Positions 4,347 to 64,000 of a stretch of DNA of 64,000 nucleotides are shown piece by piece. The notes beneath the pieces are model-generated. The model saw only the letters and a program-made list of their open reading frames with translations. It was not told the DNA's origin and made no database searches. The DNA is taken from assembly GCA_037481795.1 (NCBI GenBank), contig JBBFLA010000006.1, positions 10,910 through 74,909 of the forward strand, in the 5' to 3' direction. The position numbers were made by a program, and so were the translations under genes. The DNA is from Spirochaetota bacterium. GTDB taxonomy: Bacteria > Spirochaetota > UBA4802 > UB4802. How positions within the stretch are numbered: position 1 is the stretch's first letter; the number at the start of each line of letters is the position of its first letter.

Positions 4347-6764
4347 GTGAATTTTAAAGAACGATTACAAAAGCCCTATCCACTTATTATGGATGGTGCT
4401 ATGGGCACAATGCTCTTTAATGCAATACCAGATTACAAAGGAAACCTGGAATTACTTAATATAGAGCGTCCTGATATTATTGCATCAATACACGCTGAAT
4501 ATATTAACGCAGGTGCTGATATTGTTGAAACAAATACCTTTGGCGGAAATACAATAAAATTGGCCGAAGCTGGATTGGACTCAAGATGTGAAGAAATCAA
4601 CAGAGAAGCAGCAAGAATTGCAAAATCAGTGGCAAACGGAAAAGCATTTGTAGCAGGTTCAGTTGGTCCAACAGGTACTCTTGTAGAACCAATGGGAATA
4701 ACCCCGGCTGAAGCAGTATACAACGCATTTAAACGACAGATTCAGGGTTTGGTTTCAGGAGGTGTTGACTGCATCGCTATCGAAACTATGACCGACTTAC
4801 AGGAAGCTCGTCTGGCGTTGCGCGCTGCCAAAGATGTGGCAGATATTCCTGTAATTTGCAGTATAACATTTGAAGCTAATGGAAAAACCGTTACCGGCAC
4901 CGATATCGTGACTGCACTTGCCACACTTTCACAGATGGGTGCGGATGTTGTTGGGGCTAATTGCAGCATGGGCCCTGATGGCTTAGTTGCACTTTTCAAA
5001 GGAACTATCGCCCAGCTTAATGAATTGGGAGTTCCTCTTTCAGTGTGGGCAAATGCAGGGCTGCCAGAGCTTGTTGATGGAAAAGCAGTTTATACTCTTA
5101 ACCCACAACGCTTTGCATCACTTTCACTGGAATTTGCAAAATTGGGATTTGCAATAATTGGTGGTTGTTGCGGTACAACCCCTGCACATATAAAAGCGCT
5201 TGCAACAGTTGTAAAGAATACGTTGATAAAAATAAAAAGCTCAAAAACATACTATTACATTACAAGCAGATATACGAATATTAATGTTAATACTCATGAG
5301 GGTTTGCTTATCATTGGTGAACGGCTAAACCCAACTGCACGCAAACAATTTGCTGTTGAACTTAAAGAAAATACATTTACCTACCTGCGTAATGAATCCA
5401 GGAAACAGCAGGATGAAGGTGCTCATTGCTTGGATATTAATGTTGGCGTTCCCGGGATTGATGAACCAAAAGCAATGAAAAAAGCTGTTACTATTCTTTC
5501 TAATAGCGTTACCATTCCGCTTATGATTGACTCAGATAATCCAGTAGTAGCTGAAGCTGCGTTATGGCACTATCCCGGCATACCAATTATTAACTCCATC
5601 AGCGCAAAAAAGCAAAGCTTTGAAGCTATGCTTCCGCTTTTAAAGAAATTTGGTAGCTTTGTGGTAGCAATGTGCCTTGATGAAAGCGGCATTCATAAGG
5701 AAGCCAGCAAGCGCATTGCCATTGGGGAAAAGCTCATCGAATTGCTGCAACATCAAGGTATTGCACCGTCACGCATTTTTGTTGACCCACTCATTTTAGC
5801 CGAAAGCGCAGAAAGCGGCGCAGCACAGGAAACGCTGCAGGTTATTGAACATTTTGCAAAAAAGGGAATCAAAACAAGCATTGGATTAAGCAATATATCG
5901 TTTGGTTTGCCACAGCGCAAATTTATTAATACTGCATTTTTGAAGCTGGCTTTGCAAAAGGGGCTATATGCTGCAATAGTCAATCCAGGAGCCATAGACA
6001 CAAATACCGCAAAACCTTACTCTACTGAGGAACTGCTGGCACTTGATTTTCTTGAAGGCAGAGATAAGAATGCTTCACACTATATTGCACATTTTCAAAC
6101 AGGTCAGCAACAAACACAACAAAAGAAAAATACTGTATCTATACTTTCAAGGATTTTTGAACTTGTTGTTGCGGGAAATACCGATGATATTGAACCAGCC
6201 GTCAAAGAAGCGTTGAACCAGCACACTCCCGAAACTATTATGAATGATGCTCTTATTGCCGCCTTAGAAAAGGTTGGCCAACTTTACAGTAATGGCGAAT
6301 ATTTTCTGCCTCAGATGATTGCCTCGGCTGACACCATGAAAAAAGGTTTCAATCTTTTAAAACCGCTTATGCTGCAAAAGAAGGAATCGGTACTGGGCAG
6401 GATAGTAATCTGCACCGTTAAAGGTGATATACACGACATTGGTAAAAATATCGTTGCCATGATGCTTGAAAATCACGGCTTTGATGTGATTGATTTAGGT
6501 AAAGATGTGCCAAATGAAAACGTTATTGAAGCAATACATCAGCATAAACCAGACATTGTGTGCTTAAGTTCACTTTTAACAACTACTATGCCTAATATGG
6601 GTACTATTGCAAATGAAATTAAAACCCAAAAGCTGCCATGTAATTTGATGATAGGTGGTGCGGTTGTGACAAAAGAATATGCTGACAGCATTGGTGCGTT
6701 TTATGGAAAAGATGCTGTTGAAGCTGTTGCTGTGGCAAAAGGTATTGTGAAGAAATCTCAATAA
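4347..6764 (+). CDS. metH: methionine synthase, short form (Hcy S-methyltransferase + pterin-binding + B12-binding domains; no AdoMet reactivation domain)
   Basis: GGCCGTTP Zn-binding motif in the Hcy domain, a pterin-binding barrel region, and the B12 cap plus DxHxxG (GDIHDIGKNIV) motif. GTG start at 4347 with AGGAAGG SD at 4331-4337. Length 805 aa versus about 1230 for full MetH. Confidence 0.85.
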   Translation: MNFKERLQKPYPLIMDGAMGTMLFNAIPDYKGNLELLNIERPDIIASIHAEYINAGADIVETNTFGGNTIKLAEAGLDSRCEEINREAARIAKSVANGKAFVAGSVGPTGTLVEPMGITPAEAVYNAFKRQIQGLVSGGVDCIAIETMTDLQEARLALRAAKDVADIPVICSITFEANGKTVTGTDIVTALATLSQMGADVVGANCSMGPDGLVALFKGTIAQLNELGVPLSVWANAGLPELVDGKAVYTLNPQRFASLSLEFAKLGFAIIGGCCGTTPAHIKALATVVKNTLIKIKSSKTYYYITSRYTNINVNTHEGLLIIGERLNPTARKQFAVELKENTFTYLRNESRKQQDEGAHCLDINVGVPGIDEPKAMKKAVTILSNSVTIPLMIDSDNPVVAEAALWHYPGIPIINSISAKKQSFEAMLPLLKKFGSFVVAMCLDESGIHKEASKRIAIGEKLIELLQHQGIAPSRIFVDPLILAESAESGAAQETLQVIEHFAKKGIKTSIGLSNISFGLPQRKFINTAFLKLALQKGLYAAIVNPGAIDTNTAKPYSTEELLALDFLEGRDKNASHYIAHFQTGQQQTQQKKNTVSILSRIFELVVAGNTDDIEPAVKEALNQHTPETIMNDALIAALEKVGQLYSNGEYFLPQMIASADTMKKGFNLLKPLMLQKKESVLGRIVICTVKGDIHDIGKNIVAMMLENHGFDVIDLGKDVPNENVIEAIHQHKPDIVCLSSLLTTTMPNMGTIANEIKTQKLPCNLMIGGAVVTKEYADSIGAFYGKDAVEAVAVAKGIVKKSQ

Positions 6765-6906
6765 CTTTTTTTATAAATTTAGTTGACATAAAGATTGTAT
6801 ATACAAGAATTCGCTTATGTTATTATGGTGGATTGTTGTACAAATCCGCTTCTTTTACTATAATTTTACAGGTTTTTACATTACAACAAAGATTAAGGAG
6901 CACGTC

Positions 6907-7426
6907 TGTGAAAGGGACACGTTCTTTTCTACTCTTTTTCTTACCTTTTGTTATATTTGCATACATCTCATTTATAGTTTTTCAGCAGGCCTGTGATTAT
7001 GCTATGAATGTACAGGCAAAGAAACTTCTTCCATTCAATCATCGCACACATACCACTAAATACGGTGCTTCAGACTGTGAAATATGCCACAGCTATGATA
7101 GCAATGGAAGATTCAATGGCATCCCTACGGTAGCAGCATGTAAACAGTGTCATGATCCAAACAAAGCAAATAATCAAGTGTTTTTTGCTGGTTTTGGCGA
7201 TAATGACAAACCATGGGAATCTTTTGCCCAGCAGCCCGACCTGGTATATTTCAGCCACATCGCTGTGATGAAAAATGAAAAGAAAGCACAGTGTATTTCA
7301 TGCCATGGTGATAAGGGCAATTCTACTACAACTGCTAAAATTAAGGGGAAAATGGCTATGGGTACATGTATGGATTGCCACACAGCTTTAAAAATAAGCA
7401 ATGCATGTACAGTATGTCATGATTAA
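6907..7426 (+). CDS. membrane-anchored pentaheme cytochrome c (QrcA/ActA-like)
   Basis: Five CxxCH motifs (CEICH, CKQCH, CISCH, CMDCH, CTVCH) and an N-terminal hydrophobic anchor. GTG 6907 is preceded by AAGGAG 6894-6899; the ORF track starts at 6833. Confidence 0.7.
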
Positions 7427-7471
7427 ATTCTTATTATTGAATCGAAATTCAAGCAAGGAGTTATTACATCC

Positions 7472-9439
7472 ATGAAACTCGAACGAAAAGATTTTCTAAC
7501 AATGATAGGTGGTGCGGTGGTAGGTACCGGTGTTGGTACGCTGATTTCACCCGGTCCATGGATGGGTCTTCAATGGCTGGTTGAATGGACCCAGGACCAG
7601 TATCGCCCTCCTAAAGGTGAAGAAAAATATTTAGCAAGTATTTGTGACCAGTGTCCCAATAAATGTACCGTACAGGTCAGAATGATTGGGGATAGAGCTG
7701 TTAAAATTGAAACATCCAATCAGGGTTGTGCTGCAGGACAACTCCTTTTACAGGTCCTTTACCACCCTGAACGAGTAAAAACCCCATTGAAACGAACCGG
7801 CAAAAAGGGAAAAATTGATTTTGAGCCGGTTTCATGGGAAAGTGCAATAGCAGATATCTCCAGGAAAATAAATGATGCCATAAATAACAAAAAACAGGAC
7901 CAGATTGTAGCAATAAATCCTGCTTTCCCCGATGCAACAGCAATGTTAAACGAACGGATAGCGCTTTTTGCTGGTAGCCCTCATATATATCAGGAATCAG
8001 GATACTGGGCTCTATCCAATGCCTGTTCAGTAGCAACCCAGAAAACTGAAGGAGCTATCGATTATGATTTTGAAAATGCTGATTGCGTTGTAAGCTTTGG
8101 TGCACGCCTTTTTGAAGGGTGGGGAAATCCCGGCAGGATGCACAAGGTATTGAATATCTGGAAGCAAAAAGGTGTAAAATTTATACAGGTTGATTCCATT
8201 GCATCACGTACAGCTTCATTAGCAGACCAGTGGGTTGCAATAAAACCTGGTAGCGAACCAATTTTTGCCATGGGTGTTGCAAATTATCTGCTGAAATATG
8301 GTAGGCGCTCTGTTGCAACTAATTTTGGCAGATTTACAGAGCTACTGATTAATAAATTCACTCCTGAAAAGGTTTCTGAGCTCACTGGTGCATCACTTGA
8401 AACAATTGAATCTGTAGCAAAAGCATTAATCCAGGCACGAAGACCTATTGCAGTAGCTGGCAAAGGCGGAAAAGTTGTATCTTCTTCAGTTGCCGAATTT
8501 GCAATAATTCAAACAATAAACAGTATGATTGGCAGTCTTGGTAACAGTGTTAAACTTGTTACTTTTGCAACTCCTGCAAAGCCAGTAGTAGCAAAGAAGT
8601 CCAAGGGATTGGATGAATATATAGCAAGCGATATGACCTGTGATATAGTGCTGGTAAACAATGCTAATCCAGTGTATTCAAGTGTATATGGCAAGCGCCT
8701 TTCTGAAAAGCTTAAAAAAGCTTCAATGGTTGTGCTATTTACTTCGTTGCTTAATGATACTGCACTGTATGCTGATTATATTTTCCCAACACTTACTTCG
8801 CTTGAAATTCCTTTTACAGGTCAGGCTGTATCAGCCAAGTTTGAAGCAAAACATGCTGGCGACTCATTGCTGGCAATAGCAAAAAACATACCCAATTTAG
8901 CTGCTCAATTCCCATGGAATAGTTATTTAGATGTGGTAAAAGCTGTGAGTTTCCAGTCTAAAAATGTAGCAAATCTGGATATCCCTGTTGATGTTATCAC
9001 TGCAAAGCTGGAAGAATTAGAAAAGTTGCTGCAAGCTTCAGGCTCATATTCTATTTCTATGGTACCATTTGAAATACCAGTAGTTGGTGAGGGAAATGGA
9101 CTTGCACTTCCTTATGTATTAAAGGCACTTCCAGACACAGTTTTAAAAGGTGATACAAGCTGGGTATGGATGAATCCAGTTACAGCATCAAAAGAAGGAA
9201 TTTCCGAAGGCTCCAAAATCGATATTGAATCTCCCCGTGGTGAACTTGATACAGTCAGAGTACATTTAACCAAACGCGTTGCTTACGATACTGTTGCAAT
9301 GCCTATCGGTTTTGGCCATGAGGAATTAACCGAATATGGTAGTGAAAAAGGTGTTAACCCCAAACCCATAATGTCAGATGCATTAGACCCTCTCAGTGGT
9401 TATGCTGACTGGTGGTTAACACGTGTAAAATTGAGTTAA
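7472..9439 (+). CDS. molybdopterin-oxidoreductase-family large subunit with TAT-like signal (QrcB-like)
   Basis: N-terminal ERKDFLTMIGGAVVGTGVG, a twin-arginine-like signal with an RK variant. An N-terminal Cys cluster CDQCPNKC...C of Fe-S type. MopB-family architecture, 655 aa. AAGGAG upstream. Confidence 0.7.
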   Translation: MKLERKDFLTMIGGAVVGTGVGTLISPGPWMGLQWLVEWTQDQYRPPKGEEKYLASICDQCPNKCTVQVRMIGDRAVKIETSNQGCAAGQLLLQVLYHPERVKTPLKRTGKKGKIDFEPVSWESAIADISRKINDAINNKKQDQIVAINPAFPDATAMLNERIALFAGSPHIYQESGYWALSNACSVATQKTEGAIDYDFENADCVVSFGARLFEGWGNPGRMHKVLNIWKQKGVKFIQVDSIASRTASLADQWVAIKPGSEPIFAMGVANYLLKYGRRSVATNFGRFTELLINKFTPEKVSELTGASLETIESVAKALIQARRPIAVAGKGGKVVSSSVAEFAIIQTINSMIGSLGNSVKLVTFATPAKPVVAKKSKGLDEYIASDMTCDIVLVNNANPVYSSVYGKRLSEKLKKASMVVLFTSLLNDTALYADYIFPTLTSLEIPFTGQAVSAKFEAKHAGDSLLAIAKNIPNLAAQFPWNSYLDVVKAVSFQSKNVANLDIPVDVITAKLEELEKLLQASGSYSISMVPFEIPVVGEGNGLALPYVLKALPDTVLKGDTSWVWMNPVTASKEGISEGSKIDIESPRGELDTVRVHLTKRVAYDTVAMPIGFGHEELTEYGSEKGVNPKPIMSDALDPLSGYADWWLTRVKLS

Positions 9440-9452
9440 GAGGTGATGAATT

Positions 9453-10283
9453 ATGGCCAAGATGACAAGAAGATGGGGAATGGTTATTGATTTAGATAAA
9501 TGTACTGGTTGCGGTGCATGCAATATTGCTTGTGCACAGGAAAATAATCTTCCAATTTTCAAAGATGATTCTGATGTACCCAAAAGGGTCACGTTCCTTG
9601 ACCTTATAGAGGTAACTAATGATAAAGATTCTAAAGCTCAGTATCCTGATGTTAAAGTGGCATATATACCCAAGATGTGTCAGCAGTGTTCAGGGAACGA
9701 TCCAAATAATCCGCATCCACCATGCGTTTCAGTGTGCCCGGTTGTTGCAACTGACGTAGGTGAAGATGGCGTTGTAAGCCAGATATGGTCACGATGTATA
9801 GGTTGCCGATACTGTCAGGTAGCCTGCCCATATGAAGCACGTGTATTCCACTGGTGGAAACCTCGCTATGAAGGATCTTTCAAAGAATCTCTTAATCCTG
9901 ATGTTTCAATAGCTTCACGTGGTACCATGGTAAAATGTACATTCTGTTCACACATCTGGAAGCGTGAACGTGACAAAGCCATAGCTCAGGGTATAACCGA
10001 TATAAACGCAGTTACGTACACTCCAGCCTGTGCAAGTGCATGCCCAACTAATGCCATACTATTTGGTGACCTCAATGATCCTTCTTCGCCAGTATATGAA
10101 CCTAAAATACAAAAGGATCCCAGGGCTGTACGTCTGGTACATTCCATAGATGAATTACGTACAAAAGATCCGTCTGAATATGAAAAGCGGACTAAAATCA
10201 AAGAATATCCAAATCCAAAAGTATATTATTTAACCAGCCAGCAATGGCTTCGTGATAAAATATCTATATTTAAAAACTCCTAA
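9453..10283 (+). CDS. 4Fe-4S ferredoxin-type iron-sulfur subunit (QrcC/PsrB-like)
   Basis: Multiple CxxCxxCxxxCP clusters (CTGCGACNIAC, CQQCSG..., CIGCRYCQVACP, CASACP). GAGGTG SD. Confidence 0.75.
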   Translation: MAKMTRRWGMVIDLDKCTGCGACNIACAQENNLPIFKDDSDVPKRVTFLDLIEVTNDKDSKAQYPDVKVAYIPKMCQQCSGNDPNNPHPPCVSVCPVVATDVGEDGVVSQIWSRCIGCRYCQVACPYEARVFHWWKPRYEGSFKESLNPDVSIASRGTMVKCTFCSHIWKRERDKAIAQGITDINAVTYTPACASACPTNAILFGDLNDPSSPVYEPKIQKDPRAVRLVHSIDELRTKDPSEYEKRTKIKEYPNPKVYYLTSQQWLRDKISIFKNS

Positions 10284-10306
10284 AAAAAGCAGAAGGAGAG
10301 TATACC

Positions 10307-11539
10307 GTGAGCAAAGTAATTGAATTTTTGAAAAATGAATGGAATAGTTACCCCAGAAATATACAGATATCTCTGTATGTGCTCTTTGCACTGGTAGCAC
10401 TGTTTGTAATTTTTGCTATTCAGATCCTTTTCTGGGGCTTAGGTTACACCGATATGAATAACCGCTTTGCAATGGGGATATGGATAATCGGTGATTTAGG
10501 ATTTGTTGCGCTGGGCGGTGGAGCGTTCTTTACAGGTTTTATGCTGTATATATTCAGGGTTGATAAGCTACAGCCGTTAATAAATTCCACTGTCCTTATA
10601 GGTTTCATGTGCTACCTGTTCACATTTATATTGCTGGTATTTGATATTGGACAACCACTAAGGGCCTGGTTTGGATATGCATATCCCAACTGGGGACCAC
10701 ATACTATGCCACAGTCAATGCTTACCGAAGTAGTCTGGTGTTTGACATTTTACTTTATTGTTCTTTGCATTGAGCTTTTCCCCATCATACTAAGCAATAA
10801 ATATTTAGATAGATATCCAGCAGTTCATTATTTTGCACATTACTTGCACAAATTAATGTGGATATTTGCAGCAGTTGGAACATTCCTTTCATTCTTCCAT
10901 CAGGGCTCTCTTGGTGGCGGAATGTGGGGTGTACTATATGCCAAGCCATACTGGTTCAGGCATCATTATTTCTATCTGGCGATAGTAGCTGCAATAGCTG
11001 GCGGTCCTTGCCTGATGATGCTTGCTCCAAAAATTGCAAGCTGGATTGCTAAAAAAGAGTTTGTTCCCAAAGATGCGTATATGACATTAGCACAGATAGC
11101 CGGAGTAACATTTATAGCATACTTTTTATTCAGAGTCTATGATCTTTACACACTGGCAAAACACTTTGCCCCACTATTTGACCGCAATCTTGTTGACATG
11201 ATGGGTGGATATTATGGCTGGTGGGTAGTTGGATTGGAATTGCTTGCTTCTCTGGCAGCAATTGTTATACTGAATGTAAAAAAATTCCGTGAAAATGAAC
11301 AGTATTTCATTGCTGGTTTAATTAGTGGCGTGCTTGCCATAGTAATGCTAAAAGTGGATGTGCTCCTCCATGGATTTTCCATACCTAACTTCCCATGGCA
11401 GAATTTCTTTGGATATAATCCAACTATTCAGGAATGGTTTATATTCTTGGGTTCTCTTGCATCCATGACCCTTATTTATATGTGGTTTGTAAAATACATT
11501 CCGCTATTTCCTGAAAAACACCATGAAGAAGCTCACTAA
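10307..11539 (+). CDS. NrfD/PsrC-family integral membrane quinone-interacting subunit (QrcD-like)
   Basis: About 10 predicted TM helices over 410 aa; typical NrfD partner of an Fe-S subunit. GTG start with AGGAGAG SD. Confidence 0.75.
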   Translation: MSKVIEFLKNEWNSYPRNIQISLYVLFALVALFVIFAIQILFWGLGYTDMNNRFAMGIWIIGDLGFVALGGGAFFTGFMLYIFRVDKLQPLINSTVLIGFMCYLFTFILLVFDIGQPLRAWFGYAYPNWGPHTMPQSMLTEVVWCLTFYFIVLCIELFPIILSNKYLDRYPAVHYFAHYLHKLMWIFAAVGTFLSFFHQGSLGGGMWGVLYAKPYWFRHHYFYLAIVAAIAGGPCLMMLAPKIASWIAKKEFVPKDAYMTLAQIAGVTFIAYFLFRVYDLYTLAKHFAPLFDRNLVDMMGGYYGWWVVGLELLASLAAIVILNVKKFRENEQYFIAGLISGVLAIVMLKVDVLLHGFSIPNFPWQNFFGYNPTIQEWFIFLGSLASMTLIYMWFVKYIPLFPEKHHEEAH

Positions 11540-11562
11540 GATTTTGGTATAGTAAATTAAAC

Positions 11563-12541: not shown

Positions 12542-12991
12542 TTATACATCTATTACTATAAACGACTCCCACTCGTCATCATTAATTTTTTCACATTTTA
12601 CCTTATGCATCGTTACAGCTTTTGGATCAATATTAATATCATATCCATTTGTTATATAATCACCAATACAATCAGCTTCAAAAGTGAAAACATCATTGCT
12701 ATATATAATTTGTATAGCTTCAGGATATACTAACAGCCCTCTGGTATCTTTAATAAATATTAACTCATTTAAAAATTTGACAAGCAAAAGATCTAGATAG
12801 TTATGCTGAAGGAAAACATGACATTTTTCAACTTTTTTCAATTTTGAAGGTTCTTCAAGGCACACATGCAATAAAGCTTCAGCATTTAATTTAAAGATCT
12901 TTTCAACCGTTTTAGCTTTGCAGTGGATTGCTATATCCGCTAATGTTATATCCTCAACAAATTCAAAATATTCGTTACTATCTTCACTCAT
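12542..12991 (-). CDS. archease (RtcB activator)
   Basis: Size 149 aa and position translationally coupled to rtcB (4-bp overlap). Conserved N-terminal acidic region FEFVEDITLADIA. Confidence 0.65.
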   Translation of the reverse strand: MSEDSNEYFEFVEDITLADIAIHCKAKTVEKIFKLNAEALLHVCLEEPSKLKKVEKCHVFLQHNYLDLLLVKFLNELIFIKDTRGLLVYPEAIQIIYSNDVFTFEADCIGDYITNGYDINIDPKAVTMHKVKCEKINDDEWESFIVIDV

Positions 12992-27711: not shown

Positions 27712-28338
27712 TTACCGTGTAATACTATCCAAAGTTTCTTTAATACGATTTTCAAGGACATGAAAATCATTTTTGTCAATTAATGAACTATCAACAATAT
27801 ACGACATTCCGCAGGCAATAACATTAGGAATTGCTAAATACTGTTTAATGCTGGAAGGCATAATACCGCCTGTTGGTATAATGGAAAACGAAAATTTTAT
27901 AAACGGCTCTATAATTGCCTTAAGATATTTAACGCCACCTGTATATTCTGCCGGGAAAAACTTTAACATTGTACAACCTGATTGCAAAGCATGTGCAAGC
28001 TCAGTGGCTGTTGTAAAACCAGGTATGTATTGTATATCGGTAAAGCTGTGCGATAGTTCTATTAATGAGTCGCTGATGCAAGGAGAAATCACAAATGCAG
28101 CTCCTGCATTAATTGCGTCCTTAAAGTCATCCTGGCTCAACACACTTCCTGCTCCTATAGTAAGCTGCGGGAACGATTTTTTTAGTGCAGTGATACATTC
28201 AAGTGCCTGTGGAGTCCGCAGTGTGACTTCGATACAGTTTATGCCATATTGAAGTAATATTTTGGCAATAGTTATTATTCTGGAACTATCGCTAAAAACA
28301 CCAATTGGGATAACTGGAACTGTAAGGTTGAACTGCAT
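27712..28338 (-). CDS. eda: KDPG/KHG aldolase
   Basis: IEVTLRTP...GAGSVL...GAAFVISP motifs of the Eda family. Confidence 0.7.
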   Translation of the reverse strand: MQFNLTVPVIPIGVFSDSSRIITIAKILLQYGINCIEVTLRTPQALECITALKKSFPQLTIGAGSVLSQDDFKDAINAGAAFVISPCISDSLIELSHSFTDIQYIPGFTTATELAHALQSGCTMLKFFPAEYTGGVKYLKAIIEPFIKFSFSIIPTGGIMPSSIKQYLAIPNVIACGMSYIVDSSLIDKNDFHVLENRIKETLDSITR

Positions 28339-33967: not shown

Positions 33968-35356
33968 TTATGATAGCAGTATAAACAGCAATATAGCAAT
34001 TACAATTAAACCTGCTAAAATTCCAATAACCAGGCTTGCTTTTGAAGAAGTAGTTTCTTCATCTAATACAGCAAGTTTAGTTTTTACTTTTATATCCTGT
34101 TCCTCTGTTGTTTTGCCATAAAGGCTTTCGGTAATTTTTACAAAAAGAGTATATCCCTTTTTCTTATTATAATTAACCGAATAAACTTCAGCTTCAATTG
34201 GTGTGTTTTTATTGTCAACTATCAAATTCAGTGTCCTGGCAATGTCATAGCCATACGGAGTTGATGTATCTATTAATACATAAATAAGATCTCCTTTTTG
34301 CAATTGTGAAACCTTTTTGCCAGAAGTTGGCGATAATACTAAATCAACAGCAACCAGCTTTTTATCAAATTTACTATCGCCCTCCTCCTGATTTTCCTTT
34401 TTTTCAAACTGCGATGGGTTATACAGCATATGAAACCTGATAACATCTGTGCGGTGCAATTCAGCACGTACCTGAATATCTTTAAACTGCTGTAACAAAG
34501 ATGCAAATAACTGGCTGGCTAAACCTGATGCTTCATGTTCAATTGCATGTATTAAAGCATCAACATCTACTTTCCATAAATTTGATTGAATTTCGTGCTG
34601 TACAGGCGTAAATCTGTTTGTTTTTTGTGCTGCCTTAACAATTCTACTAAATAAATCGTATAATGCATCACCACTTTTTACTTCAGACTGTACTACACTG
34701 TAATCATCTAACCAGCAAAAGCAATATAACAATTTGTGAGTTGTACAATTGACAAAACAAAAACAGATTCCACTAAATTGGCTTGAATCAAGGTAAAGCA
34801 TAGTAATGCCAATATCCTGTTTGCTTTTTTTTATGGATTCCTCAGCTACCTGCCTGTCATTATCATAATACGGTGCAGCAATTTCTACCAGCTGAGCCAA
34901 TGTTAAGGAATCAATTTTTTGAGTAATAATGATTTCATTGTATTGAGCATTTGAAATACTGTCAAACTCAGAATACACATCAACTATATCAATATTCAAC
35001 GCTGACTTAATTATACGTTGTACTTCATTTACTGCAGTTATTGAATTATTTTCAATATTATGAAGCAATACATTTATATTTTTCTGGTCCACTCTTTGCA
35101 GAAGATAATTTTTAATGATTTCAAAATATTCTTTTTGAATAGCATATTGCTGGGATGCGATGGTAATAGCTTCAATAAAATCAATAGATGAAACGTTAGT
35201 TCGGGCATTTTTTAAATTATCCCCTGAAATAAAAACGCCGTTTACACCTATGATTCTGTTATTTTCTTTATCAATAACAGTCAAGAGTAAGCCCGATATA
35301 TTGAGTTTGGCACAATATAGTTTACTTTTTATTGATATAAGTGTTTTTGCTGACAT
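33968..35356 (-). CDS. hypothetical tail-anchored (C-terminal TM) Cys-rich protein
   Basis: C-terminal LVIGILAGLIVIAILLFILLS and a CFCFVNC...CFC cluster. No confident family assignment. Confidence 0.4.
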   Translation of the reverse strand: MSAKTLISIKSKLYCAKLNISGLLLTVIDKENNRIIGVNGVFISGDNLKNARTNVSSIDFIEAITIASQQYAIQKEYFEIIKNYLLQRVDQKNINVLLHNIENNSITAVNEVQRIIKSALNIDIVDVYSEFDSISNAQYNEIIITQKIDSLTLAQLVEIAAPYYDNDRQVAEESIKKSKQDIGITMLYLDSSQFSGICFCFVNCTTHKLLYCFCWLDDYSVVQSEVKSGDALYDLFSRIVKAAQKTNRFTPVQHEIQSNLWKVDVDALIHAIEHEASGLASQLFASLLQQFKDIQVRAELHRTDVIRFHMLYNPSQFEKKENQEEGDSKFDKKLVAVDLVLSPTSGKKVSQLQKGDLIYVLIDTSTPYGYDIARTLNLIVDNKNTPIEAEVYSVNYNKKKGYTLFVKITESLYGKTTEEQDIKVKTKLAVLDEETTSSKASLVIGILAGLIVIAILLFILLS

Positions 35357-38713: not shown

Positions 38714-39945
38714 CTTCCAATACCTTTTCTGTATATTTTTGTTTGACCACGCACCTCTTCCAGCAGTTTACGATGTTCAGCAGTAAATTCTACATTGCGA
38801 CGTGACATCATTATTTTGCATGTAGCAAATAATTTCTCCTCTGAAGGCAGGTCAACAATCTTACCATCTATATACCAGCTGAAGGGTGGTATAAACTTTG
38901 GTGTGATTGCACCATTGTGAATAACCATACAACCCGGTCCCATAACAGTACCGGTATTAATTAATGTTCCTATACTGGTCATAGTGTAATCACCTATAAA
39001 ACATCCCACCTTAAGCAATCCTGTGTTTATCTTCTCTTCACCTATAAATAATTTAACCGTTGTATAATTATTTTTCAAATCACTGTTGGTAGTCAGTGCC
39101 CCTAAATTTACCCAGCTACCAACATACGAATGCCCTATAAATCCTTCATGGTATTTATTGGCATATCCCTGAAAAATACATTCTTCCACTTCACCACCAA
39201 TCCTGCAGCAGGGCCCAATACTGCAACCTTCTCTCACTTTTGCCTGTAATAATATTGTATTATCTGCAACTGCACATGGTCCTTCAATTCTGGTAAAGGA
39301 TTTTATTGAGCAACCTTTTCCAATATATACAGGTCCTTTTGTACAATCTATAACTACATACGGTTCTATTGTTACATCATCTTCTACTATTAATTGGGAA
39401 CTATCGCCTAAAATTGTTACACTATTATGCCCACAGGTTTTTTTTATAAGCCTGAAATCCTGTGTTATAATATCCCCGTTTTTACCAACCAATTCCCACA
39501 GAGATGTCAGCACATAATCGTTATAATTTTCTATTTGAGCTTTGTCCTGTAAAAAATTTTGTACATCTTCAGTGGTGGTAAATTGTGGAATGGTAGTTTC
39601 ATGTATTTTTGCAAGTACAGGGATGCCATTATGCATATAAATGGTATTATTATGTAAGTGCGATAGTTCCGGGTATATTACTCTTGCATTAATAAACAGC
39701 AACTCTTCTGAATGGTTGATTTTCACCGGTTCATTAATATGGAGATGTGGATACTGTATATGAACTATCGCTTCTAAATGATGTCGTGTATAAAAATAGA
39801 TTGAGTCAGGAAACTGAGATGTGAACAAGGTGGCATATCGCTGGTGAATGGTGAAAAGTCCGCAGCGAATATCCCATACGGGCCTTGTTAGGGTTATTGG
39901 GAAAAAGTCATTATACTGTGAATCTTCAAAAATTATTATTTTCAT
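38695..39945 (-). CDS. left-handed beta-helix (hexapeptide-repeat) protein with divergent N-terminal nucleotidyltransferase-like domain
   Basis: C-terminal tandem hexapeptide repeats (IGKGCSIKSFTRIEGPCAVADNTIL...). The N-terminus lacks the canonical GGxGTRL, so sugar-nucleotidyltransferase activity is uncertain. Confidence 0.45.
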   Translation of the reverse strand: MKIIIFEDSQYNDFFPITLTRPVWDIRCGLFTIHQRYATLFTSQFPDSIYFYTRHHLEAIVHIQYPHLHINEPVKINHSEELLFINARVIYPELSHLHNNTIYMHNGIPVLAKIHETTIPQFTTTEDVQNFLQDKAQIENYNDYVLTSLWELVGKNGDIITQDFRLIKKTCGHNSVTILGDSSQLIVEDDVTIEPYVVIDCTKGPVYIGKGCSIKSFTRIEGPCAVADNTILLQAKVREGCSIGPCCRIGGEVEECIFQGYANKYHEGFIGHSYVGSWVNLGALTTNSDLKNNYTTVKLFIGEEKINTGLLKVGCFIGDYTMTSIGTLINTGTVMGPGCMVIHNGAITPKFIPPFSWYIDGKIVDLPSEEKLFATCKIMMSRRNVEFTAEHRKLLEEVRGQTKIYRKGIGRWNVLK

Positions 39946-42677: not shown

Positions 42678-43130
42678 TTACTGTGCTGCTTTTTGTAGTA
42701 ATTCTGGTGGTGGTCCCCAGTAAAATTGACAACACGGGATGCCTTCTTCTAAATAAAATGAAAATGTGTAGCCACTAAAACGATAGTTATCGGTATTATC
42801 TTCACTGTCTAAGGCTGCAAGATAATCATAAAGATAATTCTCTACACAATAGGCTATAACCTTTGCCAAAGACATCTTACAGACTTTGCGCACATCCATC
42901 ACAAACTCATACTCGTTCTCATACAAATAAAGATGCACCCGCTTCCAAGCTTGATACCGCTTTCTATATTTCAATCGCGAATAACTTTTTACCGGTATAT
43001 GTTTATACGACAGCACATAGTTTATGAAATTAATAATAAATGTATGAAGCGATAGTTTACGGATAGTGGCATTTTCTTGTAAAAGCTCTAAGTGTTCATA
43101 GGCAATACAGGTAGTCGTTTCTATATTCAT
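42678..43130 (-). CDS. hypothetical protein
   Basis: No recognisable motif; 150 aa. Confidence 0.35.
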   Translation of the reverse strand: MNIETTTCIAYEHLELLQENATIRKLSLHTFIINFINYVLSYKHIPVKSYSRLKYRKRYQAWKRVHLYLYENEYEFVMDVRKVCKMSLAKVIAYCVENYLYDYLAALDSEDNTDNYRFSGYTFSFYLEEGIPCCQFYWGPPPELLQKAAQ

Positions 43131-46365: not shown

Positions 46366-47456
46366 TAAGTGCCAATATCATGAAAAAAATTTTTACAGTC
46401 AGTTTTTCTAAACGCTTCCCACTATTGATAATAGTAACTATCACATCCTGTATTATTGCAGTAAGCTTTATAACAATTAAAACAATTTCCCGGATATATA
46501 CAACTTCACTTGATTATGCACACAAGACAACCATTGAGCACATTGAATCCATGAGCATGGTGCTATATAATTTTTTGAATAAAGCATATACTGATAACAA
46601 AACTTATGAAGATGAATTATTAATGCCTGTTAAAAACAATATCTCAGTGTATACCGCATATATTGTGAAGCCAACTGATGATGACAGGAACTATACGGTA
46701 AAGAAAGTTATTAAAGGAAAACCACAGATAAAAAATTTAACCCGTGTTGATACATCACATGAGTTCTTGATACGCAAAGGTTGTGCGTATGTTACCATTA
46801 ATCCTGCAATAGAAAAACAGGGCACCATTACCTATATCGAAAGTTATATACCACTTCATGGCAATAACAAAACACAGTGTTTAATTATACAGTGGCTTGC
46901 ACCCAATATTGCAATCTTACAACAAAAACATGACTTGCTCATAAAAACATTAATGCAGACTATTGCCATCGTCATTTCGGCAACCATCATTATCATTATT
47001 GTTATCTCAATCATTCAGTCATACCGAACAAAATCACTTATTCAGGAACTATCGCACAGTATTCAAAGCATTGCAACAGGCTCTCTGGATATTGCCCTTA
47101 ATGATAGCAGTGATACTGAACTTAAAACTATTGCAACCTCATTTAACAGTCTTGTGGAAAAGATAAAACACAGTGACCAGATGTTACACACAATTAAAGA
47201 AGAAACACTGACAGACATTTTTAAAAAAGGTGTTGGGTTGCTAAAAGATGGAAAGCTGGATGAAGCCCTGGCTTGTTTTACTGTGACCATACTGTATAAG
47301 CCTCAAAGCTTTGCAAGTTATTTTAATGCTGGCGTGTGTTTAGCAAAAAAAGGGCAGTTTAATGATGCACTGCAATACTTTGAAAAAGCAAGGGAACTAA
47401 ACCCTGACAATGAACTGGTCCTGCGCTATATTGGTAAAATAAAAGCAATACAATGA
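46362..47456 (+). CDS. membrane protein with periplasmic sensor-like domain, HAMP-like linker and C-terminal TPR
   Basis: Two TM helices flank a roughly 170-aa loop. The C-terminus has TPR-like helices. Translationally coupled to the kinase (4-bp overlap). Confidence 0.45.
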   Translation: MISANIMKKIFTVSFSKRFPLLIIVTITSCIIAVSFITIKTISRIYTTSLDYAHKTTIEHIESMSMVLYNFLNKAYTDNKTYEDELLMPVKNNISVYTAYIVKPTDDDRNYTVKKVIKGKPQIKNLTRVDTSHEFLIRKGCAYVTINPAIEKQGTITYIESYIPLHGNNKTQCLIIQWLAPNIAILQQKHDLLIKTLMQTIAIVISATIIIIIVISIIQSYRTKSLIQELSHSIQSIATGSLDIALNDSSDTELKTIATSFNSLVEKIKHSDQMLHTIKEETLTDIFKKGVGLLKDGKLDEALACFTVTILYKPQSFASYFNAGVCLAKKGQFNDALQYFEKARELNPDNELVLRYIGKIKAIQ

Positions 47457-49277: not shown

Positions 49278-49316
49278 CAGTAACTATCGCCCAATAATAT
49301 TAATTTGCGATAGTCC
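49278..49316. repeat. inverted pair of the window-wide ACTATCGC motif forming a hairpin between convergent uvrC and marC
   Basis: CAGTAACTATCGCCC (49278-49292) ... GCGATAGTCC (49307-49316). The 8-bp arms ACTATCGC/GCGATAGT are separated by 16 nt. Confidence 0.6.
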
Positions 49317-54300: not shown

Positions 54301-54423
54301 GGGAACTTTTAAAAACTATTTTTTTGGATGTTCCCTTGTGGGCACAATATATTAGGATAAAGCCGCTTTCTTTTTATTGTATCCGTAATGATAAAATCGG
54401 TTTTTTTACAGGTGCCCATAAAT
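54301..54423 (+). repeat. direct repeat copy B (about 123 nt), ends 25 nt upstream of bactofilin ATG
   Basis: Same outer inverted repeat (TGGGCAC 54339-54345 / GTGCCCA 54412-54418). Inner hairpin AAGCCGCTTT...AAATCGGTTT has a U-A to C-G compensatory change relative to copy A, followed by TTTTTTT. Confidence 0.6.
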
Positions 54424-54447
54424 ATTATATTGATAAATAATAGGAAT

Positions 54448-55252: not shown

Positions 55253-55256
55253 AACC

Positions 55257-57074: not shown

Positions 57075-57077
57075 TTA

Positions 57078-58994: not shown

Positions 58995-59010
58995 TACACC
59001 TTGAGGATAT

Positions 59011-59505
59011 ATGAAGATTGGATTAATATCCGATACACACAATGATATTGAACTGGTTCAGAAGGCAATTGCTATATTTAAAGAACGCAATATATCTGTT
59101 ATTATCCATGCTGGGGACCTTACCTCATCCAAGATCATTTCTCTGTTTAAAGGCTTTGATGGCAGATTTGTGCTGGGTAACTGTGACATTGATGTTGAAG
59201 AAATAAATTCAACTGCTTCTGAATGCGGGTTTGGCTGCGTTGAACATTCATGCCAGTTCACGCTGGATGGCAAGAAATTCATGGTGTTTCACGGAAACAA
59301 TGTCCCCATGTTCAGAGAAGCTGTTAACAGTGGAAAATACGATTACATCATCAAAGGGCATACCCACATCTTTGAAAATTATGTCAGCGGAAAAACACGA
59401 ATTATTAACCCCGGATCCCTGTACCGCGGTGAGGAACACACTGTTGCCATTCTTGATACTGATACTGATAAAGTGGAAAAAATTCGTATAGATATTGAAG
59501 AATAA
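59011..59505 (+). CDS. YfcE-like metallophosphoesterase
   Basis: MPE motifs D-x-H (ISDTHND), GD (HAGDL), GNCD and GHTH. Confidence 0.75.
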   Translation: MKIGLISDTHNDIELVQKAIAIFKERNISVIIHAGDLTSSKIISLFKGFDGRFVLGNCDIDVEEINSTASECGFGCVEHSCQFTLDGKKFMVFHGNNVPMFREAVNSGKYDYIIKGHTHIFENYVSGKTRIINPGSLYRGEEHTVAILDTDTDKVEKIRIDIEE

Positions 59506-60375
59506 CTACCGGTCACCTTTTATAAGGCTTACAATGCGTTCAAAATCATCAAGTGAATAAAAACTTATTTCAATACGCCCCTTCCCCGCTGAATGCCGTA
59601 TCTCAACACGGGTACCTAAAAATGAGATTAACTCTTCTTCCAGTTTTCGGATATGTGCATCCTTTGCTTTCTTTTTCTTTTTGCCAGGGGTTTTTGGAAC
59701 TTCAGCTATTGCTTTTTCTACTTCACGCACCGACAGTCCCTGATGAATAATCCTGTCAAACAATGCCTCCTGTTCATCCCCGGAAACACCTAAAAGCAAT
59801 TTTGCATGTCCAACATTAATCCTGCCATCCTGTAACGCTTCCTGCATGTGCTCGGGCAGATTAAGTAAGCGCATGATATTGGCAACCGTTGCCCTATCTT
59901 TGCCCACACGATCAGCTATTTCTGATTGTTTGAGCTTGAAGCGTGTTGCAAGCATTTTGTATGCTTTTGCTTCTTCTATGGGGTCTAAGTTTGTTCGTTG
60001 AATATTCTCAATAAGAGCCAGTGTCAGATTCTGCTCTTCGGTTGTGTTCATGACAATGGCCTTGATAGTGGGTTTTCCTAATAATTTGCATGCACGCCAC
60101 CTGCGTTCACCGGCCACGATAAAATATTCCTCACCCTGCTTGCGCACAATAATTGGTTGAAGCAACCCCACGTGCTGTATGGATTGTGCAAGCCCTGCTA
60201 TCTCTGCTGCATCAAAATGGACTCGTGGCTGGTCAGGATTTGGCATTATGGCATTAATAGGAATATCCACAACACGTTCTCTGTCCTGTAGTAAAACCTT
60301 TTCAAAATCACTTACCGGGGTAGGTGATGTGGTAATGATTGCTCCTAATCCTTTGCCTAAAACTTTTTTTGCCAT
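59506..60375 (-). CDS. parB: chromosome partitioning protein ParB (Spo0J)
   Basis: ParB box GERRWRA and HTH region. Confidence 0.9.
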   Translation of the reverse strand: MAKKVLGKGLGAIITTSPTPVSDFEKVLLQDRERVVDIPINAIMPNPDQPRVHFDAAEIAGLAQSIQHVGLLQPIIVRKQGEEYFIVAGERRWRACKLLGKPTIKAIVMNTTEEQNLTLALIENIQRTNLDPIEEAKAYKMLATRFKLKQSEIADRVGKDRATVANIMRLLNLPEHMQEALQDGRINVGHAKLLLGVSGDEQEALFDRIIHQGLSVREVEKAIAEVPKTPGKKKKKAKDAHIRKLEEELISFLGTRVEIRHSAGKGRIEISFYSLDDFERIVSLIKGDR

Positions 60376-60402
60376 TGTCTGCTCCAGTACGGTATCCTGT
60401 GA

Positions 60403-61167
60403 CTATCGCACATTCTGAATCAGTTCATGTGCTAACTGCTCATAGCTCATGCTGCCACTTGAAGTCCTGTCATAAAGATTAATGGGTTTGCCAAATGACG
60501 GTGCCTCAGAAAGCCGCACATTACGCGGGATTATTGCTGAAAACACTTTATTTTTAAAAAATTGTTTTACATCAGAGACCACCTGTTGCGAAAGATTGGT
60601 GCGCGGGTCATACATGGTAAGTAGTACTCCTTCAATTTCCAGCTTTGGATTAAGTGTATCCTGTACCATGGAAATAATTTTCAATAGCTGGCTTAAACCC
60701 TCAAGTGCATAGTATTCACACTGCAGCGGAATAATGACCGAATCTGATGCAACCAGGCTATTTAAAGTGAGTATTCCCAGTGAGGGTGGGCAGTCAATAA
60801 GTATAAAATCAAATGTGTCGCGTACCTTTTCCAGCGCCCTTTTTAATAAATACTCTTTATCCTCCATATCCATCAGTTCAACTTGAGCCCCGGCTAAATG
60901 CATATTGGATGGAACTATATAAAGATTTTCAATAGTTGTCTTGAATATTGCTTCCTGCACGGGAATGGTTCCCAGCAAAACCTCATACACCGTTGTTTCC
61001 ATTTCCTCAACATTGACACCTAAGCCAAATCCTGCGTTTGCCTGGGGGTCAATATCTACAACCAGAACCTGTTTGCCCTTTTCTGCTAAAAATGCAGCTA
61101 AATTAACAGCGGTTGTGGTTTTGCCAACTCCTCCTTTCTGGTTGGAAATGGATATAATTTTACCCAT
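60403..61167 (-). CDS. parA: chromosome partitioning ATPase ParA (Soj)
   Basis: Deviant Walker A KGGVGKTT, a MinD/ParA fold. Confidence 0.9.
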
Positions 61168-61251
61168 TGATAGCTCCCTTTGAAAAATATTCCCATTTGT
61201 ACAGACTATAAGCCAGTAGCAATCACTATATACCGGTAATCAAAATAGTTA

Positions 61252-61274
61252 TATATACGTGCAGTGCGTATATA
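61252..61274. promoter_or_regulatory. inverted repeat TATATACG-n7-CGTATATA upstream of parA, with nearby GTATAC repeats
   Basis: 8-bp perfect arms about 80 bp upstream of the parA start. Additional GTATAC palindromes at 61300-61335. Confidence 0.3.
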
Positions 61275-61396
61275 CTGTTGTAACATATTGGCACTGTAAA
61301 ATGTATACATATGTATGAATTGTATACCTTCAATTGCAAGCTTTTTTTGTTATATACTCACACCACCTGAAGTTGTGAGGTAATATTAATATCAGT

Positions 61397-62590
61397 TTAT
61401 TTTTGCCTATGAATAAAATGCCCATCCCTGAACCAGTAGCGGCGTTTTCCAGTAAACTTTCGTGGATTTATCCTTTTCCATGTTAACCCTAAAAGCACCA
61501 TGACAGCAATAGCACCCATGCAAAGGCGCACTACTGGCATATAAGGGAGTATACGTCTACCCTGTGCTATAACCAGTGCAAAAGGTTTATAGGCTGCCCT
61601 GTTACACTGATATACATGCACTGTAACATCCTGTGTTGCAGGGTTATAGAATGATATTTCATTTATAAATCCAGCGTCCCATGAACCCAGGAGTTTTTTA
61701 TTGGCAAAAATATCAACCTGCACCGGATAAGAAGCTGGAAGATATATAGTAATAGCACCCCGAGGCAATGTGCACGTATAACTTCTGGCATATTCATCAG
61801 CCTTGAATGTATCAACCACCGATAACGCTATGCTCTGACCCCAATACCATGCTTTCTGTAACAGCTCATCAAGCAGCATGCCATACGCTGTTCTGAAAAT
61901 AAAATAGCGCATGTAGAGAGAGTCTTCACTGGTATGGTATGCCGAATAATACACCATACCATTGCCATATTTTTTAAAGAATGCAACAGGCCCTTCTTGC
62001 TCACCACCAACAGTGGGGAAATACCCTTTGGCCAGTATGGATGCATTTGCTTTTTGCAATGCTACCCATCCATTATAGTTGACATTAAGCTGCATGTCAT
62101 CACGCATAACAAATGAAGCAAAATCATCATTTAAAAAGCTGTGTATCCTGCCACTGGTGCCATAATGCGGGAAATTATTAAAAAAGGACAGAGAACATCC
62201 CAATGTTTCAACAAACCGGTATGAATATCCTGCAGCATACAACCTGCCACCGCTTTTAACAAAATCCTGAAGCAGCGCATGTAATCGCTTATAATCTATA
62301 CCCTCATAATCATCTTTTAATGCAACGCCCTGAATACGCTGACCGTGTGCCATTACCTGGATGCTTGCCTCAATAGGCTGCTCAACACCGCAGGGTATAA
62401 ACACAGCATCAAATCCTGACAGGGAACTATCGCCCGCCACTACCGATGCACGTTTTACAATATACGGAATACGATATACATCAAGTAGATAGGTAAGGTT
62501 ATCATGATACGATTTGAACACCAGAACACGTGGTGCAGCCTCAACGCCCACCGTAAAAAAAAGCATAACAAGGATGACCAAAAGCCTCAT
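61397..62590 (-). CDS. secreted/membrane-anchored hypothetical protein with class-I-glutamine-amidotransferase-like (ThuA/DUF4159-like) N-terminal domain
   Basis: Signal peptide MRLLVILVMLFFTVGVEA; VLVFKSY...GFDAVFIPCG...GGRLYAAGYS resembles GATase1-like folds; C-terminal TM. Confidence 0.4.
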   Translation of the reverse strand: MRLLVILVMLFFTVGVEAAPRVLVFKSYHDNLTYLLDVYRIPYIVKRASVVAGDSSLSGFDAVFIPCGVEQPIEASIQVMAHGQRIQGVALKDDYEGIDYKRLHALLQDFVKSGGRLYAAGYSYRFVETLGCSLSFFNNFPHYGTSGRIHSFLNDDFASFVMRDDMQLNVNYNGWVALQKANASILAKGYFPTVGGEQEGPVAFFKKYGNGMVYYSAYHTSEDSLYMRYFIFRTAYGMLLDELLQKAWYWGQSIALSVVDTFKADEYARSYTCTLPRGAITIYLPASYPVQVDIFANKKLLGSWDAGFINEISFYNPATQDVTVHVYQCNRAAYKPFALVIAQGRRILPYMPVVRLCMGAIAVMVLLGLTWKRINPRKFTGKRRYWFRDGHFIHRQK

Positions 62591-64000
62591 GAAAGACTCC
62601 GGATTTGCGATAATATTTTTGTACGTTCATCCAGTATGCCATACAGCCTGTCATTGAGACATACATGTGCCACCTGCAGGCAATAGGCAACCATCTGTGG
62701 AAATACTCCATCACGCAGTGTGGGATGTATTACCGGCTTGTGCAACAATAGTTTTGACAGCGGCCGCATTTTTGAAAACCCGGTTATAATACAATCTGAA
62801 AAGGGAACAGGCATTGCTTCTGTGTCATCAAGTGATGATAAACCTGATGTATGCACAGAAAACGCTGTGCGCATCACTGCATCGTCTTTGCCCGGTGAAC
62901 CACTTAAAACCCACCTGCGGTGACGGTTATACAGTGTAAACAACTCAATGCCAATATCATAACACATATCGCCAATCACGGTCATAAATCGTTCAATGGG
63001 ATACAGGCTTTTTTTCTTTTTATTTATACCTTCTATTAATTCATCACGGGTTACATGAAAGGTGGGATTGTTGGACCTGAATGTATTAATTTCTGAAAGT
63101 ATCTCAGAAAAACGTGCTAATTCATGCGAAAAATAATTTTCAGTAAATATACAGCCTTCGTAGTGATTCTTATTGTTTTCAAAATATATCGTTGTGCCAT
63201 CAAGCAGTGCGCCATATTCATTAATAAAACCCAGAAGCATCCCTTCAAGTGCAATGAGTATATCTTTATTGTATACATCATCAAAAACCTCATTGCGTTT
63301 ATCTACCATTTTACGCTGATCATCAAACCCCTGAATGGCAACTTCCTTCCCCTCAGGAGCATAGGACAGGAACCTGTACAATTCATCGTACGGGTCAAGC
63401 TTTCTATGCAGCTGTTCCTTTGCTTTCTTCTTTAACGATTCAGGGTCTTTGCCTGCTTTTACCAGTTCATCGTGATCAAAATTCCAGTCAGTATCGGAAA
63501 CCTTTGGAGCAGTTATATCAAATAGCGTAACTATATCAGATAACACAACAGGTTTTCCCAGAACCAGTGCCTCAACGCAGGCAATACAAAATGCTTCAAA
63601 TGATGGCAATGACCCTTCTTTTTTAAGAAGGTTGGTTAGTGAGCATTCATTAGTGAAAGAAGGATAGAGCAGACATCTAAGCGTGGTGATGAAATCATAG
63701 ATATATTGTTCAATGGTCAAATTCTTTTTATTCATTGCTTCATTCTTCTTCAGATCCTGGCTTTGACGCAATTTCTGGTCAATTAATTGAATCATTGATT
63801 CTTTGGTCTGAGCATCACACAGGGAAAGCTTTAGCATTGAATCTATATAGGGCGATAGTAACTGCTTAAACTTCTCAGGCCGTGTCCATTTGAGTTCAAT
63901 ATACTGCTTATCAATCAAGCATGAGGATGCAAGTGCATTGTACAGAACAACACAATAATTAAAAATCTTAGGGTCAGATATTGACTGATCATCGACAATA
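62587..64000 (-). CDS. hypothetical protein, 5' end beyond window (reading frame open to position 64000)
   Basis: The listed start at 63918 is a TTG. The frame continues without a stop to the window edge (...IVDDQSISDPKIFNYCVVLYNALASSCLIDKQY...). Confidence 0.45.
   Translation of the reverse strand, partial: IVDDQSISDPKIFNYCVVLYNALASSCLIDKQYIELKWTRPEKFKQLLSPYIDSMLKLSLCDAQTKESMIQLIDQKLRQSQDLKKNEAMNKKNLTIEQYIYDFITTLRCLLYPSFTNECSLTNLLKKEGSLPSFEAFCIACVEALVLGKPVVLSDIVTLFDITAPKVSDTDWNFDHDELVKAGKDPESLKKKAKEQLHRKLDPYDELYRFLSYAPEGKEVAIQGFDDQRKMVDKRNEVFDDVYNKDILIALEGMLLGFINEYGALLDGTTIYFENNKNHYEGCIFTENYFSHELARFSEILSEINTFRSNNPTFHVTRDELIEGINKKKKSLYPIERFMTVIGDMCYDIGIELFTLYNRHRRWVLSGSPGKDDAVMRTAFSVHTSGLSSLDDTEAMPVPFSDCIITGFSKMRPLSKLLLHKPVIHPTLRDGVFPQMVAYCLQVAHVCLNDRLYGILDERTKILSQIRSLS

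Follow-up and report, generated by a model that had tools for sequence, protein, structure and literature searches.

Three classes of hyper-abundant genomic words are recognised: Chi-type sequences, uptake sequences and highly iterated palindromes, or HIPs (PMC4390886). The uptake signal sequences (USS) of Pasteurellaceae (AAGTGCGGT / ACAAGCGGT) and the DNA uptake sequences (DUS) of Neisseriaceae (GCCGTCTGAA and its dialects) have a short non-palindromic core of 8-10 nt, a weaker extended consensus and an AT-rich flank. They are present in hundreds to thousands of copies per genome, equally in both orientations, and the genic copies use the least costly frames. They are shared within a clade, where variant dialects exist, and are not found beyond it; copies with a single mutation show a moderate enrichment, and the creation of copies is ongoing. 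We analysed a 64-kb stretch of DNA, further called the window, from a bacterium of the phylum Spirochaetota (GenBank assembly GCA_037481795.1, contig JBBFLA010000006.1, positions 10,910 to 74,909), in which the 8-mer ACTATCGC is strongly over-represented. This word is similar to USS and DUS in all the above respects, the dialect being a possible one and the number of copies per genome being implied here from a density of 0.36-0.5/kb. It differs from them in its unrelated sequence, in a density somewhat lower than the ~0.5-1 copy/kb of USS and DUS, in the near absence of inverted-repeat terminator use (one junction), and in its host phylum, which is without a known competent member; the likeness is drawn here from sequence alone.

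The word also has features in common with HIP1 (GCGATCGC) and the cyanobacterial HIPs: an 8-mer core, an excess within their 15-300-fold range, copies both in genes and between them, conserved orthologous sites and a debated function. Part of the core (GCGAT-) is similar by eye. However, the spirochaete word is not a palindrome, its reverse complement being GCGATAGT, and no associated methyltransferase is seen in the window. Chi and the polar words of chromosome segregation, the FtsK-orienting polar sequences (KOPS) and architecture-imparting sequences (AIMS), are likewise over-represented octamers of core DNA, but they are strongly replication-skewed and in few-fold excess, whereas the spirochaete word is unskewed and in ~30-fold excess. 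In a literature search ACTATCGC was not found in any paper, and no description of over-represented words or competence in the host group was found. The phenomenon is of a known kind, but the sequence, the phylum and the clade of this instance are new.

The window contains 23 exact copies of ACTATCGC (~0.36 copies/kb), of which the plus strand carries 12 and the minus strand 11. Dinucleotide-preserving shuffles (n=100) contain a mean of 0.63 and at most 5 copies, and the order-3 Markov expectation is 1.13, which gives a 20-36-fold excess over the two backgrounds. ACTATCGCC has 12 copies in the window (0.13 expected), and GGAACTATCGC has seven (0.01 expected in the order-3 Markov model of the window). 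When the words of the window are ranked by order-3 Markov excess, ACTATCGC and its overlapping neighbours come first at every k from 7 to 12. The over-representation had been noted in the original prediction, made by a model from the letters alone, and proves stronger than was claimed. That list of 19 copies missed four (10979 and 39660 on the minus strand, 28285 and 39400 on the plus strand); the copies that it did contain exist, several of them 1-2 nt away from the coordinates given. The GC content, taken to be 35%, is 36.8%. All the longer flanks quoted as shared by subsets of copies were found in the window, and the identities of the MetH-like, SerA, bactofilin and ComF-family genes are correct.

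The copies are listed below. Each is an exact match to the 8-mer, the coordinates are those of the window, and "kept" means that the same 8-mer is present at the orthologous site of a relative's locus. One set of comparison loci (handles beginning with L) comes from public genomes and metagenomes, is syntenic to window positions 43-64 kb and is graded by SerA identity; further loci, such as L054, correspond to window positions 10.5-32 kb. The relatives' loci amount to ~250 kb in all.

1211..1218, minus: in an amidase gene (400-2046, plus), antisense frame 1 (..RDS..)
5004..5011, plus: copy GGAACTATCGCCC in the MetH-like gene, sense frame 0 (TIA)
10979..10986, minus: in the QrcD-like gene, antisense frame 0 (AIV); kept in L054, L055 and L056
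18556..18563, plus: intergenic copy CAGTAACTATCGCCC; kept in L054
21894..21901, minus: in the PBP2 gene, sense frame 0 (TIA); kept in L054, L055 and L056
25934..25941, minus: in a TPR-protein gene, sense frame 1 (YYR)
28050..28057, minus: in the gene of 2-keto-3-deoxy-6-phosphogluconate (KDPG) aldolase, sense frame 2 (ELSH); kept in L054 and L055
28285..28292, plus: second copy in the KDPG-aldolase gene, antisense frame 1 (SDS)
34373..34380, plus: in a hypothetical gene (33968-35356, minus), antisense frame 1 (GDS)
39400..39407, plus: in a sugar-nucleotidyltransferase gene, antisense frame 1 (GDS)
39660..39667, minus: second copy in the sugar-nucleotidyltransferase gene, sense frame 2 (ELSH)
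39764..39771, plus: third copy in the sugar-nucleotidyltransferase gene, antisense frame 0 (AIV)
43049..43056, minus: in a hypothetical gene (42678-43130, minus), sense frame 2
47048..47055, plus: in a TPR gene (46362-47456, plus), sense frame 2 (ELSH)
49283..49290, plus: copy CAGTAACTATCGCCC at the convergent uvrC/marC junction, its CTA being the TAG stop of marC; kept in L003, L004 and L046
49307..49314, minus: in the 3' end of marC, inverted partner of 49283; absent from L003 and L004
50368..50375, minus: copy GTTACTATCGCCCTATAT in serA, sense frame 2 (LLSP); kept in L003, L004, L043 and L046
52080..52087, plus: in an SBF-transporter gene, antisense frame 0 (AIV); kept in L003 and L004
52708..52715, minus: intergenic copy CAGTAACTATCGCCA in the spacer between the SBF gene and tRNA-Arg; kept in L003
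54574..54581, plus: copy GGAACTATCGCCA in a bactofilin gene, sense frame 0 (TIA); kept in L004, one mismatch in L003
60402..60409, plus: edge copy at the parB/parA junction, its CTA being the TAG stop of parA; created by a window-specific 1-nt deletion, poor flanks, probably a chance copy
62426..62433, plus: copy GGAACTATCGCCC in a hypothetical gene (61397-62590, minus), antisense frame 1 (GDS); kept in L003
63852..63859, minus: copy GTTACTATCGCCCTATAT in a glycosyltransferase-like gene, sense frame 2 (LLSP); kept in L004

The tRNA-Arg is the only RNA family match in an Rfam search of the window.

Nineteen of the 23 copies lie wholly within genes. These are 16 unrelated genes, including those of the MetH-like and QrcD-like proteins, PBP2, KDPG aldolase, SerA, MarC, the SBF transporter and bactofilin. 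Three of these copies are in sense frame 0, one in sense frame 1 and seven in sense frame 2, with three in antisense frame 0 and five in antisense frame 1, so all five stop-free combinations of frame and strand are occupied. With 11 sense and 8 antisense copies there is no bias with respect to transcription. The sixth combination, antisense frame 2, is unused within genes and would make the word read TAG; the edge copies at 49283 and 60402 use exactly this frame as the stop codons of marC and parA. The peptides TIA, xLSx (LSP, ELSH), AIV and GDS recur at the copies. Shuffling of synonymous codons with the proteins and the overall codon usage kept (300 trials) leaves 1.57 genic copies, at most 6, compared to the 19 observed. 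Since five frames are in use and the synonymous shuffle removes the excess, the word is imposed at the DNA level, not at the protein level, on unrelated genes and spacers. The earlier claims that copies lie in unrelated proteins in at least three frames and that selection acts on the DNA word are thus upheld, the word being selected or driven as such. Intergenic copies are enriched approximately two-fold (4 of 23 in the window; over six lineages, 17 of 70, with 13% of the DNA intergenic).

Pooling of 53 distinct sites over close relatives yields the extended consensus T-rich..CAG(T/G)A-ACTATCGC-C(C/A). The upstream flanks in the window (n=23) have G at position -3 in 16 copies (p=1e-7), G or T at -2 in 21 and A at -1 in 15; downstream, C is found at +8 in 12 copies and C or A at +9 in 20. 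One helical turn upstream of the core there is a T-rich tract, with T at -10 in 14 of 23 copies and at -9 in 16 of 23 (p=2e-4; background frequency of T 0.32). The fullest form of the consensus, CAGTAACTATCGCC, is shown by the truly intergenic copies. In one pair of genic copies, those of serA (50358-50385) and of the last gene (63842-63869), 18 nt around the word are identical (GTTACTATCGCCCTATAT, peptide LLSPYI); this exceeds what the consensus explains, and the rough chance probability is a few percent.

One conceivable origin of the word is from remnants of mobile elements, such as miniature inverted-repeat transposable elements (MITEs), or from shared protein motifs combined with codon usage. 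Some copies indeed have 14-18 nt in common, and the peptides TIA, LSP and GDS recur. However, the information content is at background level past about -10/+9, and the largest repeat families of the window, 17-28 nt long, are the word itself. Identity between copies stops ~15 nt from the core. Neither finding that would have counted against the original prediction, a frequency no higher than the Markov background or the longer identity of remnants of a larger repeat, was thus made in the window. Repetitive extragenic palindromes (REP) and MITEs are longer, mostly extragenic, structured units; here 19 of 23 copies are in genes, with no identity beyond ~15 nt. The five frames in use, the loss of the excess on synonymous shuffling and the unrelated, housekeeping character of the host genes are equally at odds with such an origin, and we regard it as refuted.

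Copies of both orientations are intermingled throughout the window, also between 12 and 64 kb, where the GC skew is uniformly negative. The strand balance, put forward earlier as a distinction from KOPS and Chi, is therefore real. A polar word of the Chi/KOPS type, guiding RecBCD/AddAB or FtsK, would be in keeping with an over-represented 8-mer in a core-gene region close to parAB, but it is effectively refuted by the 12 to 11 distribution across uniform skew and by an excess far above that of the known Chi or KOPS words. The GC skew changes its sign near 12 kb, at the same place as the orientation of genes. Chromosomal parB and parA are at 59506-61167, with holB and metG nearby, and therefore the right end of the window may adjoin the replication origin.

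The word is confined to one clade of uncultured Spirochaetota. Loci with SerA identity of at least 68% contain 0.17-0.7 copies/kb (0.33-0.7 in loci longer than 5.9 kb; none in one 2-kb fragment), loci with SerA identity of 65% or less contain 0-0.05 copies/kb, and 19 unrelated control loci contain about no copies. Opposite the region 10.5-32 kb of the window, L054 (91% nucleotide identity) has 10 copies in 21.8 kb and L055 (75% nucleotide identity) has 8, whereas L057, a fully syntenic locus of the sister lineage (PBP2 identity 66%), has one copy in 21.8 kb. L057 comes from the same sample as L047, which is also motif-less, and the sister lineage is covered by these two separate 21-kb loci. 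In the group with ~80% SerA identity the base after ACTATCG is C or T (8 and 5 copies, respectively, in L043), and this ACTATCG[C/T] form may be a dialect. A candidate dispersed word of the sister lineage's own was rejected, as the top k-mers there belong to one tandem repeat, the 10-bp ACACGGATGA repeated nine times at L047:17058-17145, which mimicked a lineage-specific word in the k-mer ranking.

Two related metagenome-assembled genomes bear the submitters' label Leptospira. Cultured or named Leptospira are absent among the best 120 matches each of SerA, UvrC and PBP2, and therefore the host is taken to be an uncultured Spirochaetota lineage; Leptospira-specific families have only faint matches in the window proteins. 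A search of a plasmid collection gave no match to the window. The Leptophage LE1, a weak foreign-DNA control since cultured Leptospira are outside the clade, has one copy of the word in 73.6 kb. A scan of viral contigs with CAGTAACTATCGCC gave chance matches only, and one contig family with 3-5 copies of the core has no flanks and a GC content of 48%. The motif-free gap of the window at 11-18.5 kb was considered as a foreign island and rejected, since the genes there are housekeeping ones (RtcB, bactofilin, ComF, QueC).

Orthologous copies are retained far above background. The exact 8-mer is kept in 57 of the 83 comparisons of a window site with a relative, against 23.7 expected from all aligned 8-mers; the comparisons are phylogenetically non-independent, and the effect is large. 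Relatives at 73% nucleotide identity keep 5 of 7 sites, where the expected retention per site is 0.11. In a second region 6/6, 3/6 and 2/3 sites are kept against per-site expectations of 0.53, 0.12 and 0.12, that is, 11 of 15 in total against ~4.3. Positional retention is 2-5 times background over ~27% nucleotide divergence. The nearest relatives, L001 and L002 (92-93% nucleotide identity to window positions 56384-64000), keep none of four sites, which is not statistically significant, and their density of the word is lower (0.16-0.21/kb). In L002 a single substitution has disrupted each of two ancestral copies, those at 62426 and 63852, these numbers being too small to call decay.

New copies arise via synonymous or conservative substitutions. 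In parB, four genomes have GCA ACG GTT GCC (ATVA) where L004 has GCA ACT ATC GCC (ATIA): three substitutions within 8 bases yield a copy that is perfect in its extended form, and the protein is altered by one conservative change, Val to Ile. At several further sites a perfect copy in one genome corresponds to one-off copies in others. Nearly all of the 24 single-mismatch variants of ACTATCGC are near expectation, and the core is thus sharp. The enriched variants, ATTATCGC (8 copies, 2.7 expected), ACTATTGC (11 and 5.4) and ACTATCAC (5 and 2.2), are C>T/G>A transition products, as expected of decaying copies.

These are exactly the products that would be corrected if the word were a by-product of biased repair or conversion, for instance by a very-short-patch (VSP)-type endonuclease with a long site that turns one-off sequences into a functionless word. 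The clustered substitutions by which new copies come point in the same direction. Yet the known VSP-type biases, such as that of E. coli Vsr/CCWGG, produce less than two-fold excess, not ~30-fold. Moreover, no such enzyme is encoded in the window, and retention at 2-5 times background points to the upkeep of particular sites rather than to random replenishment. We consider biased repair improbable.

The retention of particular sites also bears on a HIP1-like role, in which the word would be a cis site for an abundant DNA-binding protein or an orphan methyltransferase, maintained by ordinary selection for its part in repair, replication or the organisation of the chromosome or nucleoid, and unconnected with uptake. 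Xu et al. read the conservation of orthologous HIP1 sites as selection for a chromosomal function (PMC5861425). Copies of the spirochaete word are conserved inside open reading frames as well as between them, which is the argument used for HIP1 selection, and the 20-36-fold excess falls in the HIP1 range of 15-300-fold (PMC5861425). The majority of copies lie inside genes, and hardly any are associated with terminators; a second over-represented word is present in the same clade. On the other hand, every described HIP is palindromic (PMC4390886), whereas this word is not, and an asymmetric site, being one-stranded, fits strand-discrimination models poorly. The window encodes a single methyltransferase, an RlmI-like rRNA enzyme, and none that acts on DNA. 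We see this role as rather doubtful. If it did apply, the word would be the first non-palindromic example and would argue against methylation-symmetry explanations.

The features of the word agree with most of the published hallmarks of DUS and USS (PMC1939737, PMC3630211, 10.1101/2025.10.24.684340). Of the readings considered, the most likely one, which we propose tentatively, is that this lineage-specific, hyper-abundant, asymmetric word acts as a self-DNA tag of the DNA-uptake-signal type. Approximately, we place uptake-signal-like drive before the HIP1-like cis role, and the latter before biased repair, with little left for the rest. A sequence-specific protein would read a site of 12-15 bp in either orientation. 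This reader would be a part of the DNA-uptake apparatus, that is, of a pilus or pseudopilus followed by ComEA/ComEC and then by ComF/DprA/RecA. Word-bearing fragments from dead relatives would be preferentially taken up and recombined into the chromosome, and thus word-creating mutations would spread and decayed copies would be replaced, which amounts to molecular drive. Coding constraints would steer the word into tolerable frames, those giving TIA, xLSx, AIV, GDS and TAG stops. ComEC-domain proteins are found across Spirochaetes (PMC6299819).

An uptake signal had been suggested from the start, and that interpretation keeps its basis in a DNA-level, unskewed, clade-specific word with a possible dialect, but loses two of its arguments, a hairpin and a comF gene. 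The predicted inverted pair at the convergent uvrC/marC junction (49283/49307) exists and forms a hairpin with an 8-bp stem and a 16-nt loop (dG -13.2 kcal/mol, z -3.6). As evidence it is weak: it is the one such junction, and its right arm lies within marC and is missing from L003 and L004. The hairpin has no T-tail, and its reading as a terminator was rejected. At the same junction an inverted pair has formed independently in the group with ~80% SerA identity, which is mildly suggestive. No other junction in ~220 kb of clade DNA has an inverted pair of the word. The comF-like gene (16782-17531) matches TIGR00201 with E 1e-30, below the curated cut-off. ComF-family genes are widespread, and the sister lineage without the word has a comF-like gene at the same position, so that this gene carries no weight.

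Several further points weigh against the uptake-signal interpretation. We know of no spirochaete that is naturally transformable. The word has only the one inverted-pair junction, without a T-tail, and 19 of 23 copies are wholly in genes, while about half of the known DUS and USS are in predicted terminators (10.1101/2025.10.24.684340). The comF-like gene, present in the motif-less sister lineage, is uninformative. Strong positional conservation fits selection for a cis function equally, as argued for HIP1 (PMC5861425). Finally, a second hyper-abundant word, GGGTCAGAGC, coexists in the clade, and the lineage may be prone to such words for another reason.

A possibility that we hold less firmly than the tag itself is a third, independently evolved DNA-uptake-sequence system, the first outside Proteobacteria; an uncultured genus of Spirochaetota would then be capable of sequence-selective natural transformation. 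To our knowledge, sequence-specific DNA uptake is known from two proteobacterial families only. Molecular drive and selection for self-recognition are still argued over as explanations of uptake sequences. A third case, in a distant phylum with no known competence, would mean that natural transformation shapes spirochaete genomes. The motif-less, syntenic sister lineage makes the receptor and the origin of such words tractable by comparative genomics, because the recognising protein could be found by gene presence and absence. The word is also of practical use in this clade, as a sharp marker by which sequences can be binned and foreign DNA recognised.

The second dispersed word, GGGTCAGAGC (reverse complement GCTCTGACCC), is found at the following positions of the window:

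1244-1253, minus
48962-48971, minus
52261-52270, plus
55857-55866, minus
61832-61841, minus

One-off copies are at 20402, 48905, 50985 and 51034. The 11-mer GGGGTCAGAGC has four exact and three one-off copies, against 0.2 expected. All copies of GGGTCAGAGC are genic and use three frames, and seven of nine run antisense to the gene; 0.11 copies remain after a synonymous shuffle, against five observed. In the loci of the clade its density is 0.1-0.2/kb, and it is absent from the outgroups and from phage LE1. It is possibly a polar word.

Some other features of the window deserve mention. The region 6833-11539 contains a Qrc-like menaquinone reductase cluster of a multihaem cytochrome c3, a molybdopterin oxidoreductase, a 4Fe-4S protein and QrcD, the latter assigned by a match to NF041784 (E 3e-96) that is below the cut-off. 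The Qrc complex is typical of sulfate reducers; here it is found in a spirochaete. The RNA ligase gene rtcB is accompanied by that of archease (12542-14442), and a lone HEPN-domain gene is at 43422-43814. There are two bactofilin paralogues, at 14470-14892 and 54388-54807. Upstream of the second one and running into its start (54388) is a tandem duplication, 54117-54236 and 54307-54427, with ~190 bp spacing and 87-92% identity.

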